Origin: Trueperaceae bacterium
GTDB taxonomy: Bacteria; Deinococcota; Deinococci; Deinococcales; Trueperaceae
NCBI GenBank assembly: GCA_965215565.1
Contig: CBDCDZ010000004.1
Coordinates: 960,001-1,024,000 of the forward strand
DNA: 64,000 nucleotides
Direction: 5' to 3'
Shown: positions 11,776-24,821 of the stretch, in pieces
How positions within the stretch are numbered: the stretch's first letter is position 1
Layout of the letters: each line of letters starts with the position of its first letter
The notes under the pieces: model-generated
What the model was told of the DNA's origin: nothing
Databases searched by the model: none
What the model saw: only the letters and a program-made list of their open reading frames with translations
Translations under genes and position numbers: made by a program

Positions 11776-11874
11776 ATGAAAAAGTCCAAAAAACTCCTCG
11801 CCTTTTTGTTTTTCACCGCCGCGCTATTAACCGTCTGTGCGCAGCTTAGTATGGCGAACGCAGGAATCTTCTAA
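11776..11874 (+). CDS. 32-aa signal-peptide-like small protein MKKSKKLLAFLFFTAALLTVCAQLSMANAGIF
   Basis: AAGGAG RBS, basic N-region, hydrophobic core, and a hairpin plus T run at about 11896-11922. Confidence 0.65.
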   Translation: MKKSKKLLAFLFFTAALLTVCAQLSMANAGIF

Positions 11875-17572: not shown

Positions 17573-19849
17573 GTGAGAACCTTGTCAAGCCAGCGTCGCC
17601 AGAATCGCTACACTACCTCTATGGTCGCACGCCTCCGCAGCCTCTTTTCAAAACCGCCCTCGCTGGGTACCAGGCTCCTCCTCATCGCCTCAGCTTCGAC
17701 GCTCGTTCCCTTTGTGGTCATGCTTTTTAGCGCAACCTTGCAGCGTCAGTCGCTGGAGGCGTACGCCAAAGAGGAGGCGCTCAGGAGCGTGCGGCTCATC
17801 TCGGCAGAGCAGCACCAGCATATCGAATTAGCGGAGGAACTCTTGGCGGTGCTGTCGCACGTACCGGCAGTCAGCGAGAGGGACCCCGAAGCGTGCCCCG
17901 CGCTCTTGCAAGACATCATGCTGCAGTTTCCTATCTACACCATGATGGGTGTGCTGGAGCGTAATGGCGATATGTCGTGTAGCGCACTCCCGCTAGAAAG
18001 ACCCGTCAACGCCGCAGACCGCGTCTGGTTTCAAGACGCAGTCGGCACGAGAGGTTTCGTCGTGAGCGACTACATCATCGGGCGCGTCTCGGGTAAGCCG
18101 GCGCTCTCGCTCGGCTATCCACTTTTAGACGCGGCAGGCGAGACCGAAGCCGTCGCTTTCATCGGGCTCAACCTGCGTTGGCTCGACACGCTCATCGGGG
18201 GCGCGCAGCTCCCGGAGGGGGCGTCGCTCACGCTCATCGACGCTGAAGGCACGGTGCTCGCCAGCCGAGGTCCATTGGGGGAAACCTATATGATCGGGGA
18301 GAGCCTCGAGGAGACGCCTCTGGTGCAGCAGGTGCTCGCCGAGCAGACGGGCGTCGTGCAGCGCAAGCTAGAGGGGCAAACGGAGATTATCGGCTTCGCG
18401 CCCCTAGACCCGAACCTCACGGCGGGCTCGGTGATCGTGAGCATCCCTAGAGCCGTCGCCTTCGCTGAAGCTGACGACATCTTCTACCGCAGCACGCTGA
18501 CCCTGCTTAGCGTCTGCGTGAGCCTCCTCGCCGCTACTTGGTGGACGCTTCACCACTACGTGGGGCGTCCGGCGCAGGTGCTCTTGCAGACGACGCGGCG
18601 GCTGCGCGATGGCGACTTGGACGCCCGCACCGAGCTGCCTGCAAAGGGCGAACTCGGTCAGCTCGCTCGCCACTTCGACGCGATGGCGGCGTCCTTGCAA
18701 GCGAGAGAGCGGGAGGCCGGACGGGCAAAAACGCAGCTCCAGACGGCGAACGACAAGCTCTCGCGCTCCGTGCAGACCCTCGCCGTGCGCAACCGCGAGA
18801 TGACGCTCCTAACCCACTTCGGCGAACTGCTCCAGGCGAGCCTCTCGGTGCACGAGGCGTACCGCATTTTAGAGCAACTCGCCGTCGGTCTCTTCCCAGA
18901 CCTTTCCGGCGAGGTCTACGTCTTTGATACGAACAAAGAGTACGCCGTGCGCAGGGCGAGTTGGACTGGAGGAGAGGCCAACATAACGGTATCAGCGGAG
19001 ACGTTCGCGCTCACCGACTGCTGGGCGCTGCGCCGCACGCAGCCGCACCTCTACACGAAAGGAAAAGCGGACGTGCTCTGTTCTCACCTCGGGACGGGGC
19101 CCCAGACACACATTAAAGACGCCGCCCACCTGTGCATCCCCCTCATCGCTCAGGGCGAAGTCTTCGGCGTGCTCCATCTACAAGGAGACGCCGCCGCGCT
19201 GCAAAAAGACATGCAGCGCTTTAGCCGCACCGCCGCCGAGCAGTTCGCGCTCTCGCTCGCGGGGCTCACGCTCAAAGAGGAGCTGCACTACCAGTCCACC
19301 CGTGACCCGCTCACGGGGCTCTTCAACCGCCGTTACTTGGAGGAAACCTTGGAGCGCGAACTCGCTCGCGCCGCGCGTAACGGGACCTCTTTGGGCGTCG
19401 TCATGATCGACATCGACCACTTCAAAACCTTTAACGACACCTTCGGGCACCGCGCGGGCGACCTGGTCTTGCGCGAAGTCGCCGCGCTCTTGCAGCGGAG
19501 CGTGCGCTCGAGCGACATCTGCTGCCGCTACGGGGGCGAAGAGCTTACGCTCGTGCTGCTCGACGCCTCCTTGGAGAATACCTGTAAGCGGGCGGAGTAT
19601 ATCCGCGAGGCGTTAGAAGCGCTCACCCTCACGCATGAAGGGCGCTCGCTCGGCAAACTCACGGCGTCGTTCGGCGTGGTCAGTGCACCGCAGCACGGCG
19701 AGCGCATAGGCGACCTCTTGGAAAAGGCGGATTTGGCGCTCTACAAGGCGAAGCACAGAGGGCGCAACCGTGTCGAAGCGGCAGGGATTGAAGAGGTTAC
19801 TCAGAGTGATGCAGACCGGAGTGAAGAGGTCCCCATAGAGAACGGTTAG
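17573..19849 (+). CDS. Membrane sensor diguanylate cyclase (Cache-HAMP-GAF-GGDEF)
   Basis: Two TMs flanking a Cache-like domain, HAMP, DPLTGLFNRR, DIDHFK, RSSD I-site and GGEEL; start may be ATG 17621. Confidence 0.92.
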   Translation: MRTLSSQRRQNRYTTSMVARLRSLFSKPPSLGTRLLLIASASTLVPFVVMLFSATLQRQSLEAYAKEEALRSVRLISAEQHQHIELAEELLAVLSHVPAVSERDPEACPALLQDIMLQFPIYTMMGVLERNGDMSCSALPLERPVNAADRVWFQDAVGTRGFVVSDYIIGRVSGKPALSLGYPLLDAAGETEAVAFIGLNLRWLDTLIGGAQLPEGASLTLIDAEGTVLASRGPLGETYMIGESLEETPLVQQVLAEQTGVVQRKLEGQTEIIGFAPLDPNLTAGSVIVSIPRAVAFAEADDIFYRSTLTLLSVCVSLLAATWWTLHHYVGRPAQVLLQTTRRLRDGDLDARTELPAKGELGQLARHFDAMAASLQAREREAGRAKTQLQTANDKLSRSVQTLAVRNREMTLLTHFGELLQASLSVHEAYRILEQLAVGLFPDLSGEVYVFDTNKEYAVRRASWTGGEANITVSAETFALTDCWALRRTQPHLYTKGKADVLCSHLGTGPQTHIKDAAHLCIPLIAQGEVFGVLHLQGDAAALQKDMQRFSRTAAEQFALSLAGLTLKEELHYQSTRDPLTGLFNRRYLEETLERELARAARNGTSLGVVMIDIDHFKTFNDTFGHRAGDLVLREVAALLQRSVRSSDICCRYGGEELTLVLLDASLENTCKRAEYIREALEALTLTHEGRSLGKLTASFGVVSAPQHGERIGDLLEKADLALYKAKHRGRNRVEAAGIEEVTQSDADRSEEVPIENG

Positions 19850-20894: not shown

Positions 20895-21617
20895 GTGCCC
20901 CCGAGCTTCACGAACTCCAAAGCAGACGCCAAGCCAAATTTCAGCGCGAACTTGAGCGCGGGTTTTAGGGCGATGCTGCCCCTCTGGACAGGGCTCATCC
21001 CCTTCGGCTTAGCGTACGCCCTCTCCGCACGTACAGCCGGGCTGAGCCCTTTTGACACGCAACTGATGAGCGCCTTTGTCCTTGCCGGGAGCGCTCAGTT
21101 TAGCGCCGCCGGGCTCTTCGGTCTCGGCGCGTCGGGCGCGTCCATCGTGCTGACTACTTTCGTGATCAATCTGCGCCACCTGCTCTACACCTTGACGCTG
21201 GGTCAGCGGCTCGAGCTGCGCTGGTCACAGAAACTCTTAGCCGCGCACCTCACCACCGACGAAGCCTTCGGCGTAACGATTGCCAGTGAGAACGTCACTT
21301 ACCCTTTTTTCTTGGGTGCAGCGCTGAGCCTCTTCACCTCATGGAACGCGAGCACGTTAGCGGGTATCCTTCTCAGCACCACTATTCCCAACCCCGCCGC
21401 GCTCGGTATCGACTTCATCTTTCCGCTCGCTTTTTTAGCGCTCCTCATTCCCTTGCTCAGAAGCTGGACGGAGGTAGGTACCGCTACGCTTGCGGGCGTC
21501 AGCGCTCTTTTGGTGACGGACCTTGTCGGTGGCGGCTTGACAATTTTTTTAGTAGGGACGCTCGGCGCACTTTTGGGTGCGTGGTGGACGCAGCCGAAAG
21601 AGGAGAAGAGCGTATGA
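20895..21617 (+). CDS. azlC: AzlC-family branched-chain amino acid exporter permease
   Basis: AGSAQF, INLRHLLY, TDEAF motifs. Confidence 0.88.
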   Translation: MPPSFTNSKADAKPNFSANLSAGFRAMLPLWTGLIPFGLAYALSARTAGLSPFDTQLMSAFVLAGSAQFSAAGLFGLGASGASIVLTTFVINLRHLLYTLTLGQRLELRWSQKLLAAHLTTDEAFGVTIASENVTYPFFLGAALSLFTSWNASTLAGILLSTTIPNPAALGIDFIFPLAFLALLIPLLRSWTEVGTATLAGVSALLVTDLVGGGLTIFLVGTLGALLGAWWTQPKEEKSV

Positions 21618-21910
21618 GCGCCACCCTGATTATCCTCCTGATGGCGCTCGTCACGTACGGACCGCGCCTCGCAGGGTTCGCCCTCTCGGGCGTGCGCTTG
21701 CCCAGCTTCTGGCTGCGCTTCTTGCACTTCGTTCCTATTACAGTGTTTGCTGCGCTGATCGTACCCGCACTGCCCGGTGACGAGGGTGAGGTCAGTATCC
21801 GCCTGGTTGCGGCAACGCTCGCCGCGCTCGCGCTTTGGCGCGCGAAACAACTGTGGTTAGGTATCACCGTAGGGATGGGCGTCTTCTGGCTACTCCGCGC
21901 CCTGCTCTAA
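21614..21910 (+). CDS. azlD: AzlD-domain protein
   Basis: ATGA overlap with the azlC stop; MALVTYGPR...FLHFVP..VFAALI. Confidence 0.85.
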   Translation: MSATLIILLMALVTYGPRLAGFALSGVRLPSFWLRFLHFVPITVFAALIVPALPGDEGEVSIRLVAATLAALALWRAKQLWLGITVGMGVFWLLRALL

Positions 21911-21913
21911 CGC

Positions 21914-22285
21914 TCAGTTCAAAACGCGCATGGCGGGCAACGTGTCGCCTTCTAAAATGCGCAACCAGTGACTCAGCACGTAGACGCTCACGCTTAAAAG
22001 GTTGACAAAGGTGTCCACGTATTGGGGCGTCTCGAGCAGGACCGATTCGGGCGCGTTCTTCGAGAGGATCACCGCTTGCCACGCTTCGGCGGCGACGAGC
22101 GAGGAGCGTTTTATCCCCGCCTCGGCTGCGGGGTAGTCGCGTAAAATGGTTTCAAAATCGGGATGAACCTCGACGGCTTTTTTCACGATATCGAAGTCTA
22201 AGAGTAACCGCTCCAAACGTTGCATCTCATCTTGGCTGTAGGACGTTGTTAAGGTGTTCACGCTTGCCTCCATGTTGCTTATCAA
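21914..22285 (-). CDS. Hypothetical protein
   Basis: 123-aa ORF filling the gap; start uncertain (TTG 22285 or ATG 22273). Confidence 0.55.
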   Translation of the reverse strand: MISNMEASVNTLTTSYSQDEMQRLERLLLDFDIVKKAVEVHPDFETILRDYPAAEAGIKRSSLVAAEAWQAVILSKNAPESVLLETPQYVDTFVNLLSVSVYVLSHWLRILEGDTLPAMRVLN

Positions 22286-22358
22286 GGTAGCGCTTAGAGC
22301 GTTCTATGAGCGTTCCACCTCGAAGAGGTTGAGCCGGAACGCTCGCTATATCTGAAGG

Positions 22359-22386
22359 CAAAAAATAACAGGTCCGAAGACCTGTT
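22359..22386 (-). terminator. Terminator of the small peptide gene
   Basis: AACAGGTC/GACCTGTT stem, then ATTTTTT on the minus strand. Confidence 0.75.
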
Positions 22387-22403
22387 GTGGGGTAAAAGGT
22401 GAG

Positions 22404-22532
22404 TTAGTTGCTGATCTTGAAACCGTTGCTAATCTTAAAGCCGTCGCTTGATTTGCTGGACGAACCCGCAAAGGTGGTGGAAGAAAGCGACACGGTAAAA
22501 ATAAGAAGGAGGGCTAACGCAATTTTTTTCAT
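22404..22532 (-). CDS. 42-aa secreted peptide precursor MKKIALALLLIFTVSLSSTTFAGSSSKSSDGFKISNGFKISN
   Basis: AAGGGAG RBS 6 nt upstream; Sec-type signal peptide; repeats differ only at synonymous positions; own terminator. Confidence 0.8.
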   Translation of the reverse strand: MKKIALALLLIFTVSLSSTTFAGSSSKSSDGFKISNGFKISN

Positions 22533-22598
22533 TTTTATCTCCCTTGTAGTCGGTCTTAATTGGATGAGGTTGCTTCCTCTTCCTCTTGACCTGAAATC

Positions 22599-22708
22599 AG
22601 TCTAAAGGACAAAGGTTGCCAAAAGGTTGCCAAAAAGAGGCTAAAAGGTTGCCGCTCAAACAAGAGGTAAGATTGCGAGTTAAAGAAAGTTTTAACAAGG
22701 CAACCTTT
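22599..22708 (-). promoter_or_regulatory. Putative promoter with phased GGCAACCTTT operator repeats
   Basis: AAAGGTTGCC at 22611, 22622 and 22644; inverted copy at 22699-22708; minus-strand TAGACT -10 box at 22599-22604. Confidence 0.65.
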
Positions 22709-22771
22709 CGCTTTGTCCTCCGGTAGCCGTTCCGCGAACTATGTAATGGACGCTTTCCAACGAAAGATATC

Positions 22772-23719
22772 CTAAGCAGCTTTCCCGCTGACAGCGAGTT
22801 GTGTCACCGCGTTAAAAAAGGCTTCGACGACCTCGACAGGGTAGTGAACGCCCGCAAATTTGCGGATTTCTGCGAACGCGGTCTCGGCGGAGAGTGCTTT
22901 GCGGTAAGGTCTATCGGTAGTCATGGCGTCGAAGGTATCCGCCACAGCCACGATATACGCTTCGGTGAGGATTTCGTCTCCTTTAAGACCATAGGGGTAG
23001 CCCGAACCGTCGAAACGCTCGTGATGTTGTTCCACAATTTTTCCGGCTATGGAGGGATAGGTTCCCTCTAGCGCCTCACGCCCGAACCGCGGGTGCTGTT
23101 CTATCACGCGCCACTCCTCGGGTGTGAGCTTACCGGGCTTATTCAGTATCTCCTCTGGCACTTTCGTCTTACCGATATCGTGAAAGTACGCGCCGTAATC
23201 AAGCCGATGAAGCCTTTCTGCTGAAAGACCGAGTTGCTCACCTGTCGCGTAGGAGAGACGTTGGATGCGGTAGCAGTGGTCCGACGTATATCCGTCTTTA
23301 CGCTCGACTTCGACCGCGAGTTCTCGCAGTTGGCGTATGTCTTCGCTGATCTCATGGAACTGGGGCACCGAGGAGACGAACAGGAAGCGAACTTCGTTCA
23401 GTGCAGAAAAGGTTGTTACGGCAGAAAGTGACTGAACGACGAAGTGATCGCCCGCTCGGAGCGTTTCCCCCTCAGGAGTGCTGAGTTCGCCGGAGAGGAC
23501 GTAGTAGGTTTCTACAGCCCCCTCAAAAGGCGTGAGCGTAAGACGCTGCCCTGCGCGCAACGTTCCCTCGACGACCTCCGCCGTGGCTGAGGACGACAGC
23601 AAGCGAACTTCGATGGAAAGCGAGCTAACGCGCTCTAAGCATTCTCCTGCACGTTGAACAGTAACGCCTTGTACTTTACTCTCAACCGGTCTCTCTGCGA
23701 TCATTCGGTATCTCCTCAA
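22772..23719 (-). CDS. HD-GYP phosphodiesterase with N-terminal cupin-like domain
   Basis: HDIGK, HHERFDGSGYP, DRPYR; ETYYVLSGEL cupin-like strand. Confidence 0.9.
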   Translation of the reverse strand: MRRYRMIAERPVESKVQGVTVQRAGECLERVSSLSIEVRLLSSSATAEVVEGTLRAGQRLTLTPFEGAVETYYVLSGELSTPEGETLRAGDHFVVQSLSAVTTFSALNEVRFLFVSSVPQFHEISEDIRQLRELAVEVERKDGYTSDHCYRIQRLSYATGEQLGLSAERLHRLDYGAYFHDIGKTKVPEEILNKPGKLTPEEWRVIEQHPRFGREALEGTYPSIAGKIVEQHHERFDGSGYPYGLKGDEILTEAYIVAVADTFDAMTTDRPYRKALSAETAFAEIRKFAGVHYPVEVVEAFFNAVTQLAVSGKAA

Positions 23720-23885
23720 GTACCTACTATGCAGCGCACTCCCTTACAGAATTCTTACGCTTATCCGTGTATTTATGAGCTTCGCCAAGCAGCCTACACA
23801 CATGAGCTTGCGCAAACGTGTAGCATCAGGGCAAGTAAAGCTGGAGACGGACAGAGTAGCAAGAGACAGTCCGGGGAGGTTGTTC

Positions 23886-24821
23886 ATGAAACTAGGCATG
23901 GTGGGGCTCGGCAAGATGGGCGGCGATATGACGCGGCGGCTCATGCAGCGTGGTCACGAGGTGGTCGTTTTCGACATCTCCGAGGGCGCAGTGAAGCACT
24001 TGGCAGACGAGGGCGCGACGGCGTCGGAGAGCATCGAGGATATGGTGAGCAAGTTGGAGCCGCCACGTACGGTTTGGCTCTCACTACCTTCGGGTGAGAT
24101 CACGGAGCAGAGCGTAACGCAGACGCTCGAGCTGCTGGAGCCTGAAGACGTGCTCGTAGACAGCGCCAACAGCGACTGGCGCGACACCTTAGCGCGCGAT
24201 AAGAAGGCGGAGGAAGCGGGCGTGCACTACGTTGACGCGGGCGTTTCGGGTGGCATTTGGGGACTGCGCGAGGGCTACAACCTCATGGTCGGCGGCAGCG
24301 ACAAGGCGTTTAGTGATATCGAGCCCGCTCTGCAAGCCTTAGCCCCTGAAGGCGGCTACGCCCACGTCGGACCGGCAGGCAGCGGTCACTTTGTTAAGAT
24401 GGTCCATAACGGCGTCGAGTACGCGCTGATGCAGTCTTATGGGGAGGGGTTCGAGGTGCTCGCGTCCTTTGAACATGCAGAACTTGACCTGCACCAGATC
24501 GCCAAGCTCTGGACGAACGGCTCGGTGATCCGCTCGTGGCTTTTAGAACTCAGTATCAGCGCGCTGAAAGAGGACAAGCGCTTGGAGAATATCGAGGCGT
24601 TTGTCAACGACTCGGGCATGGGGCGCTGGACGGTGGAGTATGGTGTGAACCACGCGGTGCCGACGCCCGCGATTGCAGCGGCGCTCTACGCGCGGTTCTC
24701 GAGCCGTCAACAAGACTCCTTCGCCGCCAAAGTCGCCGCCGCCCTGCGCAACGAGTTCGGCGGTCACAGCGTCAAAAGGCGCGAGCCAGCCGGGGAAGAA
24801 GACCCAGGGAAAGAGCAGTGA
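23886..24821 (+). CDS. gnd: 6-phosphogluconate dehydrogenase (short, decarboxylating)
   Basis: GGAGG RBS; GLGKMG, VSGG, GHFVKMVHNGVEY, LRNEFGGH. Confidence 0.93.
   Translation: MKLGMVGLGKMGGDMTRRLMQRGHEVVVFDISEGAVKHLADEGATASESIEDMVSKLEPPRTVWLSLPSGEITEQSVTQTLELLEPEDVLVDSANSDWRDTLARDKKAEEAGVHYVDAGVSGGIWGLREGYNLMVGGSDKAFSDIEPALQALAPEGGYAHVGPAGSGHFVKMVHNGVEYALMQSYGEGFEVLASFEHAELDLHQIAKLWTNGSVIRSWLLELSISALKEDKRLENIEAFVNDSGMGRWTVEYGVNHAVPTPAIAAALYARFSSRQQDSFAAKVAAALRNEFGGHSVKRREPAGEEDPGKEQ

Follow-up and report, generated by a model that had tools for sequence, protein, structure and literature searches.

A predicted secreted-peptide gene paired with a cupin-HD-GYP gene in Deinococcota and Bacillota

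The window (the whole stretch of 64,000 nucleotides analyzed here, C4:960001-1024000 of the Trueperaceae source genome G000) contains a 42-codon open reading frame (ORF) located 239 nt from a gene for a cupin-HD-GYP protein, which lies upstream on the same strand. An earlier note on this DNA had proposed the ORF as a candidate precursor of a secreted hexapeptide signal. The locus raises the questions of whether so short an ORF is a gene, whether it belongs with its neighbor, and which protein would read its product.

The peptide gene and its promoter

The ORF, its ribosome-binding site, the linker, the tandem GFKISN sequence and the terminator-like hairpin described in the earlier note are all present (Table 1). 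The two GFKISN copies show three nucleotide differences, all at third codon positions, as the note had pointed out. The N-terminus is composed of a basic n-region, a hydrophobic core and T-F-A, and was judged a signal peptide heuristically only. Because the number of terminator-like elements in the region (four) matches that in shuffled sequences (3.2), the hairpin scan alone is little proof of a terminator.

Table 1 Positions of the cassette features within the window
Feature	Position	Strand	Basis or remark
Whole cassette (HD-GYP gene, promoter-like module, peptide gene, terminator)	22303..23782	-	Present or absent as one unit
Cupin-HD-GYP protein, 310 aa, predicted cytoplasmic c-di-GMP phosphodiesterase, likely receptor	22772..23704	-	Pfam HD_5, PmGH ligand mapping, model, fold matches
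Cupin barrel, residues about 14-114	23363..23665	-	VIA-align fold matches, conservation over 150 homologues
HD-GYP domain	22796..23347	-	PmGH mapping, conservation, VIA-align
Promoter-like module of the peptide gene	22599..22708	-	Recurrence at other sites
AAGGGAG ribosome-binding site of the peptide ORF	22545-22539	-	Sequence
Peptide ORF, 42 aa	22532-22404	-	Reads MKKIALALLLIFTVSLSSTTFAGSSSKSSDGFKISNGFKISN-stop
Predicted Sec signal peptide, residues 1-22, end T-F-A	22467..22532	-	Sequence, heuristic only
Ser-rich linker GSSSKSSD, residues 23-30	22443..22466	-	Sequence
G-FKISN copy 1, residues 31-36	22425..22442	-	Sequence
G-FKISN copy 2 and stop	22404..22424	-	FKISN fits the family tail F/Y-x-hydrophobic-N/S-x
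Terminator-like hairpin (22386-22367) and U tract	22360..22386	-	Terminator scan

Sequence comparisons argue for a genuine gene. In G000, scanning the whole genome for small signal-type ORFs gave 35 matches, 34 of them on the main contig. Four of these 34 have their start no more than 1 kb from one of the five cupin-HD-GYP genes, and none is near the six other HD-GYP genes of the genome; random placement brings a mean of 0.11 near the cupin-HD-GYP genes (P(≥3) = 0.00016). Among the best-supported rows listed, contigs of related strains carry at least eight differences in seven codons of the ORF; six of these codons vary silently, the seventh gives I4V within the signal peptide, and the core shows no change. 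Moreover, G056, a genome of the same genus, has an orthologue of the peptide that ends ITVDGPRFTR and is preceded by the same promoter. That the ORF arose by chance or is non-coding could be argued from its shortness and from the failure to find an exact homologue (a back-translated GFKISNGFKI pattern gave no exact match in the genome contigs); in view of the silent-site bias, the orthologue with its promoter, the clustering and the family context described below, such an artefact is hardly credible. The missing pattern match and the different end of the orthologue do tell against the hexapeptide proposed in the earlier note, as GFKISN is not conserved. What survives of that proposal is a C-terminal tail of five residues shared across the family.

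In the promoter-like module, three direct GCAACCTT repeats follow one another at start-to-start distances of 22 and 11 nt; an inverted copy lies upstream of them, and TAGACT (22604-22599) resembles a -10 box. The module recurs at two further sites of G000 and at orthologous sites in G056 and in G035, another genome of the same genus. Across these sites the repeats and the -10-like box are conserved and the spacing sequence is not, which suggests that the peptide gene may be under its own regulator-controlled promoter; a sigma-70 scan found no promoter. The leader in the window folds into a long hairpin (z -2.45), which was set aside as an RNA element, the same conservation pattern favoring a DNA promoter module.

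Other loci of G000 carry the module or resemble the peptide gene. At C4:1214298-1216240 (L328), a 42-aa secreted-type peptide ending GRSNVWAG is divergent from a subtilase (PF00082) containing four GRSNVWAG repeats, split over two frames; peptide and subtilase share the promoter module of the window peptide, and the G035 counterpart of this peptide ends GRSSAWGG. At C4:4392650-4392860 (L327), the GCAACCTT module occurs once more, before an ATG that meets a stop at codon 3; with signal-like sequence in another frame, this is likely the remnant of a peptide gene. In the window, a 32-aa ORF (11776-11874, plus strand) with a ribosome site and a signal-like sequence ending ANAGIF is preceded by three large Ig-domain genes and a secreted-type ORF of 173 aa. 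Elsewhere, signal-type ORFs of 32, 38 and 59 aa (C4:2808488, 1578198 and 1422816) are located near large genes (640, 811 and 972 aa) with N-termini that resemble, by eye, those of NTPase- or SARP-type regulators. The three pairs may be additional peptide-regulator cassettes; G035 and G056 both conserve the 38-aa ORF.

A two-gene pairing in two phyla

The pairing was examined with a scan blind to the tail, which looked for a signal-type ORF of 28-260 aa with a ribosome site no more than 1.1 kb from an HD-GYP gene at de-duplicated loci. Such an ORF adjoins 136 of 157 cupin-HD-GYP loci versus 10 of 93 other HD-GYP loci, a comparison given no P value because many loci are close kin. Among loci with at least 600 nt of flank, the counts are 129 of 147 and 9 of 70. 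The scan missed nine visible partners, counted a few non-partners (L011, L049, L208 and L228), and sorted L015, a cupin locus interrupted by a stop, into the control group. In the reciprocal direction, 45 of 46 loci of the Bacillota long partner, five of them seeds, have a cupin-HD-GYP gene directly upstream, the miss lying at a contig edge, and 27 of 30 loci of the Trueperaceae-type (family f1) long partner lie beside one, with all three misses at contig edges. Of the five cupin-HD-GYP paralogues in G000, all but one have a partner of their own. No partner was found at seven Trueperaceae-type tree loci (L008-L011, L039, L040 and the C4:1575155 paralogue) or at the double-cupin loci L029 and L030, and no third gene recurs across the inspected loci. 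The synteny with cupin-HD-GYP genes, for which the earlier note had suggested looking, thus holds in both directions. We conclude from these gene neighborhoods that the predicted peptide gene and the cupin-HD-GYP gene belong to a conserved two-gene cassette, present in the distant phyla Deinococcota and Bacillota.

The two genes also come and go together. In a relative (runs X1/X2), a contig joint skips 22303-23782, and in G035 the flanks of the cassette directly adjoin, both genes being absent. In G056 the orthologous cassette is split by rearrangement (L035 at C2:2007975, L325 at C8:773931): the HD-GYP orthologue is truncated near residue 238 and lies beside gnd, and the peptide gene persists with its promoter apart from it, beside azlCD. 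Downstream of the cassette in the window, an ORF of 118-123 aa with no known family (21914-22285, minus strand) is kept in G035 and G056 with or without the cassette.

The partners are peptides of about 42 aa, proteins of about 100 aa, or helical proteins of 140-190 aa (139-189), and have a short C-terminal tail in common. The short partners (41-65 aa) end FKISN, FRVNR, YRVNR, FRVNC, FEVNK, FEFNR, FWPSK, FRFSR, FRFDN or FRPEQ, and 19 of 26 have F/Y at position -5 (exceptions L005, L007, L017, L023, L044, L249 and L325). Partners of 93-118 aa, some of them lipoprotein-like, end with HYY[IV]W...DP and the tail, which comprises five residues after DP in family f1 (DP-FRFSN, DP-INFSR) and five or six in Bacillaceae (DP-PVPMF, DP-PHPMF). 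A model of the carrier of about 100 aa has a beta-alpha-alpha-beta-beta arrangement with the tail predicted to be unstructured (pLDDT 65). Searches with the long carrier gave no Pfam or NCBIfam family common to its members, no PDB match above Z 3.0, and only unnamed Atlas matches (at most 0.85), which does not show a new fold. In Planococcus, Halobacillus, Jeotgalibacillus and a Clostridia MAG, the upstream protein has 139-189 aa and ends DP-[ILV]xV[VI]Gx. The same position in Indiicoccus (L249) holds a 41-aa signal-plus-tail peptide ending NAPLIVVGW; in a quick tree of 77 of the loci, this one nests within the clade with helical carriers (SH-aLRT 97), so this lineage independently lost all but signal and tail, and the short form has arisen more than once. 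Asp-Pro self-cleavage was rejected as a general mechanism, as the short forms are without Asp-Pro.

In a profile comparison of short and long partners only the signal parts aligned; the common tail was recognized by inspecting the C-termini, not by a profile score. Tandem tail copies occur elsewhere (GFTVST twice, GFTVTN twice, VTNPFRFS twice, GAIATK seven times), and most short partners have a single copy. Since the tail common to the partners spans five residues, mostly with F/Y at -5, and the repeat unit is G plus FKISN, the likely signal is the pentapeptide FKISN with G as a spacer, rather than a conserved hexapeptide. The tails vary between close relatives, and their differences appear to follow those of the cupin somewhat more closely than those of the HD domain, which is suggestive only: the partial correlation of tail divergence is 0.31 with the cupin versus 0.18 with the HD domain in 45 Bacillaceae-type pairs, and 0.30 versus 0.02 in 52 Planococcus-type pairs, kin not being independent in either set.

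Above-threshold Rfam matches place c-di-GMP riboswitches at 11 of 60 cupin loci (8/20, 2/20 and 1/20) versus 0 of 20 controls. They belong to RF01786 (c-di-GMP-II), RF03169 (II-GAG) and RF03167 (I-GGC), occur in both phyla, and are all located on the partner strand, 17-84 nt before the partner start. The usual targets of such riboswitches are pilins or adhesins; in contrast, those found here, at related and paralogous loci, precede the candidate signal gene of a neighboring phosphodiesterase. At 21500-24500 of the window, no riboswitch matched at E ≤ 5. G000 has seven RF01786 matches, two of which are at peptide leaders, both under the RF01786 cut-off and one passing RF03169. The remaining five lie before genes for ordinary surface-type secreted proteins or for a subtilase; the presence of a riboswitch is thus a sign of c-di-GMP control and not of a ligand role. 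In leader folding with the aptamer strand taken, accessibility of the ribosome site was lower in nine of ten leaders, by at least 0.15 in only three; this hints at OFF switches, by which c-di-GMP would switch the peptide off, but too weakly to settle the sign of regulation. At C4:2483145-2487465 of G000, three c-di-GMP-II riboswitches, two of them in tandem, lie before a cluster of secreted pilin-like proteins. Together, the riboswitches before partner genes in relatives, the two-way linkage and the joint gain and loss lend good support to the connection with c-di-GMP and HD-GYP put forward in the earlier note.

The cupin-HD-GYP protein

The start of the HD-GYP gene is more likely the ATG at 23704, behind GAGGAG at 23717-23712, than the TTG at 23719. 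Pfam reports only HD/HD_5 for the protein (HD_5, E 3e-33); the cupin is weak (Cupin_3, E 0.03), with Cupin_2 recognized in 7 of 17 homologues. A model built from 17 sequences (pLDDT 87) is composed of an eight-strand barrel (residues 24-111), a linker helix and the HD-GYP domain. In VIA-align, the barrel matches the CENP-C cupin 7x85 (Z 13.4, rmsd 2.7, 110 aligned), KdgF 5fpx (Z 13.0, rmsd 2.0, 96 aligned) and XRE-cupin regulators (Z 10.8), with which it shares the double-stranded beta-helix. The usual cupin metal motif is His-x-His...Glu plus a second His. Unlike those proteins, the neighbor lacks a conserved His metal motif: over 150 homologues E24, E43, P59, E65 and G72 are kept, no histidine is conserved inside the barrel, and only the Glu of the motif (E65) remains. 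Because of this lack of a conserved histidine, the barrel is more likely a ligand pocket.

The HD-GYP part resembles known structures, PA4781 (4r8z; Z 23.3, rmsd 2.9, 195 aligned) and PmGH (4mcw; Z 23.1), in fold, metal ligands, GYP and RxY[K/R]. Its characteristic residues are D137, H143, H175, D176, K179, H204, H227, H228, GYP 235-237, D256, D259 and R265-x-Y-R268, of which H143, H175, D176, H204, H227, H228, D256 and GYP are 100% conserved in the 150 homologues. All catalytic and metal residues of PmGH map onto the protein except E185, which is replaced by Y139 (96% conserved). Y139 places the enzyme in the Y/F subfamily, likely binuclear, and not in the trinuclear E/D-T-G group; the accessible text of PMC4159591 describes Y/F at this position as a likely binuclear HD-GYP subfamily. 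In addition, R265-P-Y267-R268 fits the RxY[K/R] guanine-recognition motif for c-di-GMP, as given for HD-GYP domains in the main text of bioRxiv 10.1101/2021.11.05.467447. The neighbor is thus predicted to be a c-di-GMP phosphodiesterase with intact catalytic ligands. It differs from PmGH and PA4781 in having an N-terminal cupin in place of GAF or REC, as well as Y139 in place of E185.

A cupin profile search gave 230 representatives at E ≤ 0.001. Thirty carriers, picked for varied lengths from 150 listed, were scanned; all have an HD domain and nine also GGDEF. Outside family f1, a phylum search found only five weak cupin matches, in f2, and an Atlas search with the cupin gave nothing usable. 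The cupin-HD-GYP unit also occurs fused, in TPR-GGDEF-cupin-HD-GYP and cupin-HD-GYP-GAF-GGDEF proteins (L024, L027, P0014, P0016, P0069 and P0079), and the fusion loci L024 and L027 retain riboswitch and partner. Double-cupin HD-GYP forms of 410-430 aa are found at L029, L030, L049, L050, L315 and L316; in G037, the partner upstream of the double-cupin forms ends DPPKFVRF(K). A dCache-HAMP-GAF-GGDEF diguanylate cyclase is encoded in the window at 17573-19849 (plus strand), 2.5 kb from the cassette, and G000 has 33 GGDEF-like matches.

A candidate reader of the peptide

Since the pairing of peptide and enzyme occurs in two phyla, often with a c-di-GMP riboswitch, the last five residues are likely a cell-to-cell signal read by the enzyme. 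The precursor would be exported via Sec and cut after A22, then trimmed to FKISN, two copies per precursor. The pentapeptide may be taken up through a family-5 peptide ABC transporter (G000 has six SBP_bac_5 genes, encoding family-5 binding proteins) and would bind the cupin domain, thereby changing c-di-GMP hydrolysis by the HD-GYP domain; in relatives, riboswitches may feed back on peptide synthesis. That a re-imported C-terminal pentapeptide tunes c-di-GMP breakdown with cell density in this way is, in our judgment, fairly probable. The cupin domain of the neighbor is the likely sensor. The earlier note had expected a receptor that is atypical or encoded elsewhere; the candidate is indeed non-TPR, and it need not lie elsewhere. 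Counted against this re-import reading are the loci without a partner, the separation of the two genes in G056, the 7 of 26 short tails without F/Y at -5, and the absence of a riboswitch at this locus. Moreover, Deinococcota are diderm, so a released peptide would need to cross an outer layer, and the long partners that look like lipoproteins fit release between cells less simply.

These last points suit a reading in which the cupin reads the tail inside one cell and the partner reports export or envelope proteolysis, either because the free C-terminus of unexported precursor binds the cupin in the cytoplasm or because periplasmic fragments are re-imported by the same cell. It also explains linkage, tail conservation and covariation, and accommodates folded or lipid-anchored carriers with a free tail after the invariant Asp-Pro. 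We nevertheless regard it as rather unlikely: internal tandem copies, up to seven, are of use only when cut out, and the fast divergence of tails, together with the presence of several paralogous pairs with distinct tails in one genome, looks like signal specificity. The tails and repeats also alternate in hydrophobicity, as a beta-strand-forming repeat peptide of surface or matrix would. Such a partner would be regulated by c-di-GMP and merely co-regulated with a cupin that senses an unrelated metabolite. Cupins commonly bind small molecules, and five of the seven c-di-GMP-II switches of G000 serve surface-type secreted proteins or a subtilase. However, the near-exclusive two-way linkage across phyla, the restriction of what three dissimilar carriers share to a tail of 5-6 residues, and the single copy in most short forms, too short for a structural subunit, make a structural role improbable. 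Lastly, the receptor could be a membrane sensor or a TPR/BTAD regulator elsewhere, with the HD-GYP protein as downstream effector. The promoter module before a 42-aa secreted peptide without a cupin-HD-GYP neighbor (C4:1216112) points this way, as do the L024 and L027 partners, beside longer fusions with a TPR-like N-terminus, and the domain order of P0014 (TPR-GGDEF-cupin-HD-GYP). Such a separate receptor is very unlikely, since the inspected loci share no third gene and the cupin is the constant non-catalytic domain.

With the cupin of the neighbor as preferred sensor, the cassette can be compared with the RRNPP(A) systems (Rap-Phr, NprR-NprX, PlcR-PapR and AimR-AimP), in which a small propeptide with a C-terminal core lies beside a cytoplasmic protein of 250-500 aa. 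According to the accessible text of PMC10075063, RRNPP members have a propeptide of 10-100 aa with a Sec signal and, as direct neighbor, a receptor of 250-500 aa with TPRs; that of PMC9765709 adds that the core of RRNPPA propeptides is sometimes repeated in tandem. The RRNPP-like layout noted earlier stands as regards size and adjacency (42 aa and 310 aa, 239 nt apart), many relatives having partners of 93-189 aa. It fails for the TPRs: Pfam and the model give only HD/HD_5 and a beta barrel with HD-GYP, and the cassette is therefore not an RRNPP member. The statement that the window holds no TPR receptor is borne out for its 31 ORFs of at least 230 aa, none of which has a TPR match among the best five families listed per protein. 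A faint match of the peptide to PhrK (13 bits, cut-off 35) covers the signal part. Unlike RRNPP(A), the cassette has a cupin sensor, a c-di-GMP phosphodiesterase output, folded carriers of 100-190 aa among its partners and c-di-GMP riboswitches before partner genes, and occurs in both Deinococcota and Bacillota. In the accessible text of PMC10075063 and PMC9765709, all imported-peptide systems have TPR receptors and belong to Bacillota, and neither HD-GYP nor cupin is mentioned. The main text of the HD-GYP survey (bioRxiv 10.1101/2021.11.05.467447) mentions cupin, peptide and Deinococcus nowhere; domain tables in its supplement may list cupin fusions. We found neither a peptide-pheromone-binding cupin nor a cupin-HD-GYP peptide cassette in the literature covered, to which subscription journals mostly do not belong, and the conserved cassette is apparently undescribed so far.

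The widest version of the proposal is peptide communication across phyla, in which a metal-free cupin pheromone receptor gates a c-di-GMP phosphodiesterase, with carriers that can replace one another (a bare propeptide, a helical protein, or a small beta/alpha protein or lipoprotein), a riboswitch feedback loop, and, in one Deinococcota cell, four separate peptide channels leading to its c-di-GMP pool. We give this an even chance. Most HD-GYP enzymes have, to our knowledge, no known signal; if the proposal is true, an HD-GYP enzyme would gain a defined, synthesizable ligand, and imported peptides would have a second, unrelated receptor fold. TPR-based detectors miss cupin-receptor cassettes by design. 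The cassette is cheaply testable, as the peptides have only five residues, the 310-aa protein is soluble, cognate and non-cognate pairs exist in nature, and hosts are in culture (Metabacillus, Cytobacillus and Planococcus). If the proposal holds, peptide signaling would extend to Deinococcota, and the choice between attached and free life that is made through c-di-GMP would be tied directly to population sensing.
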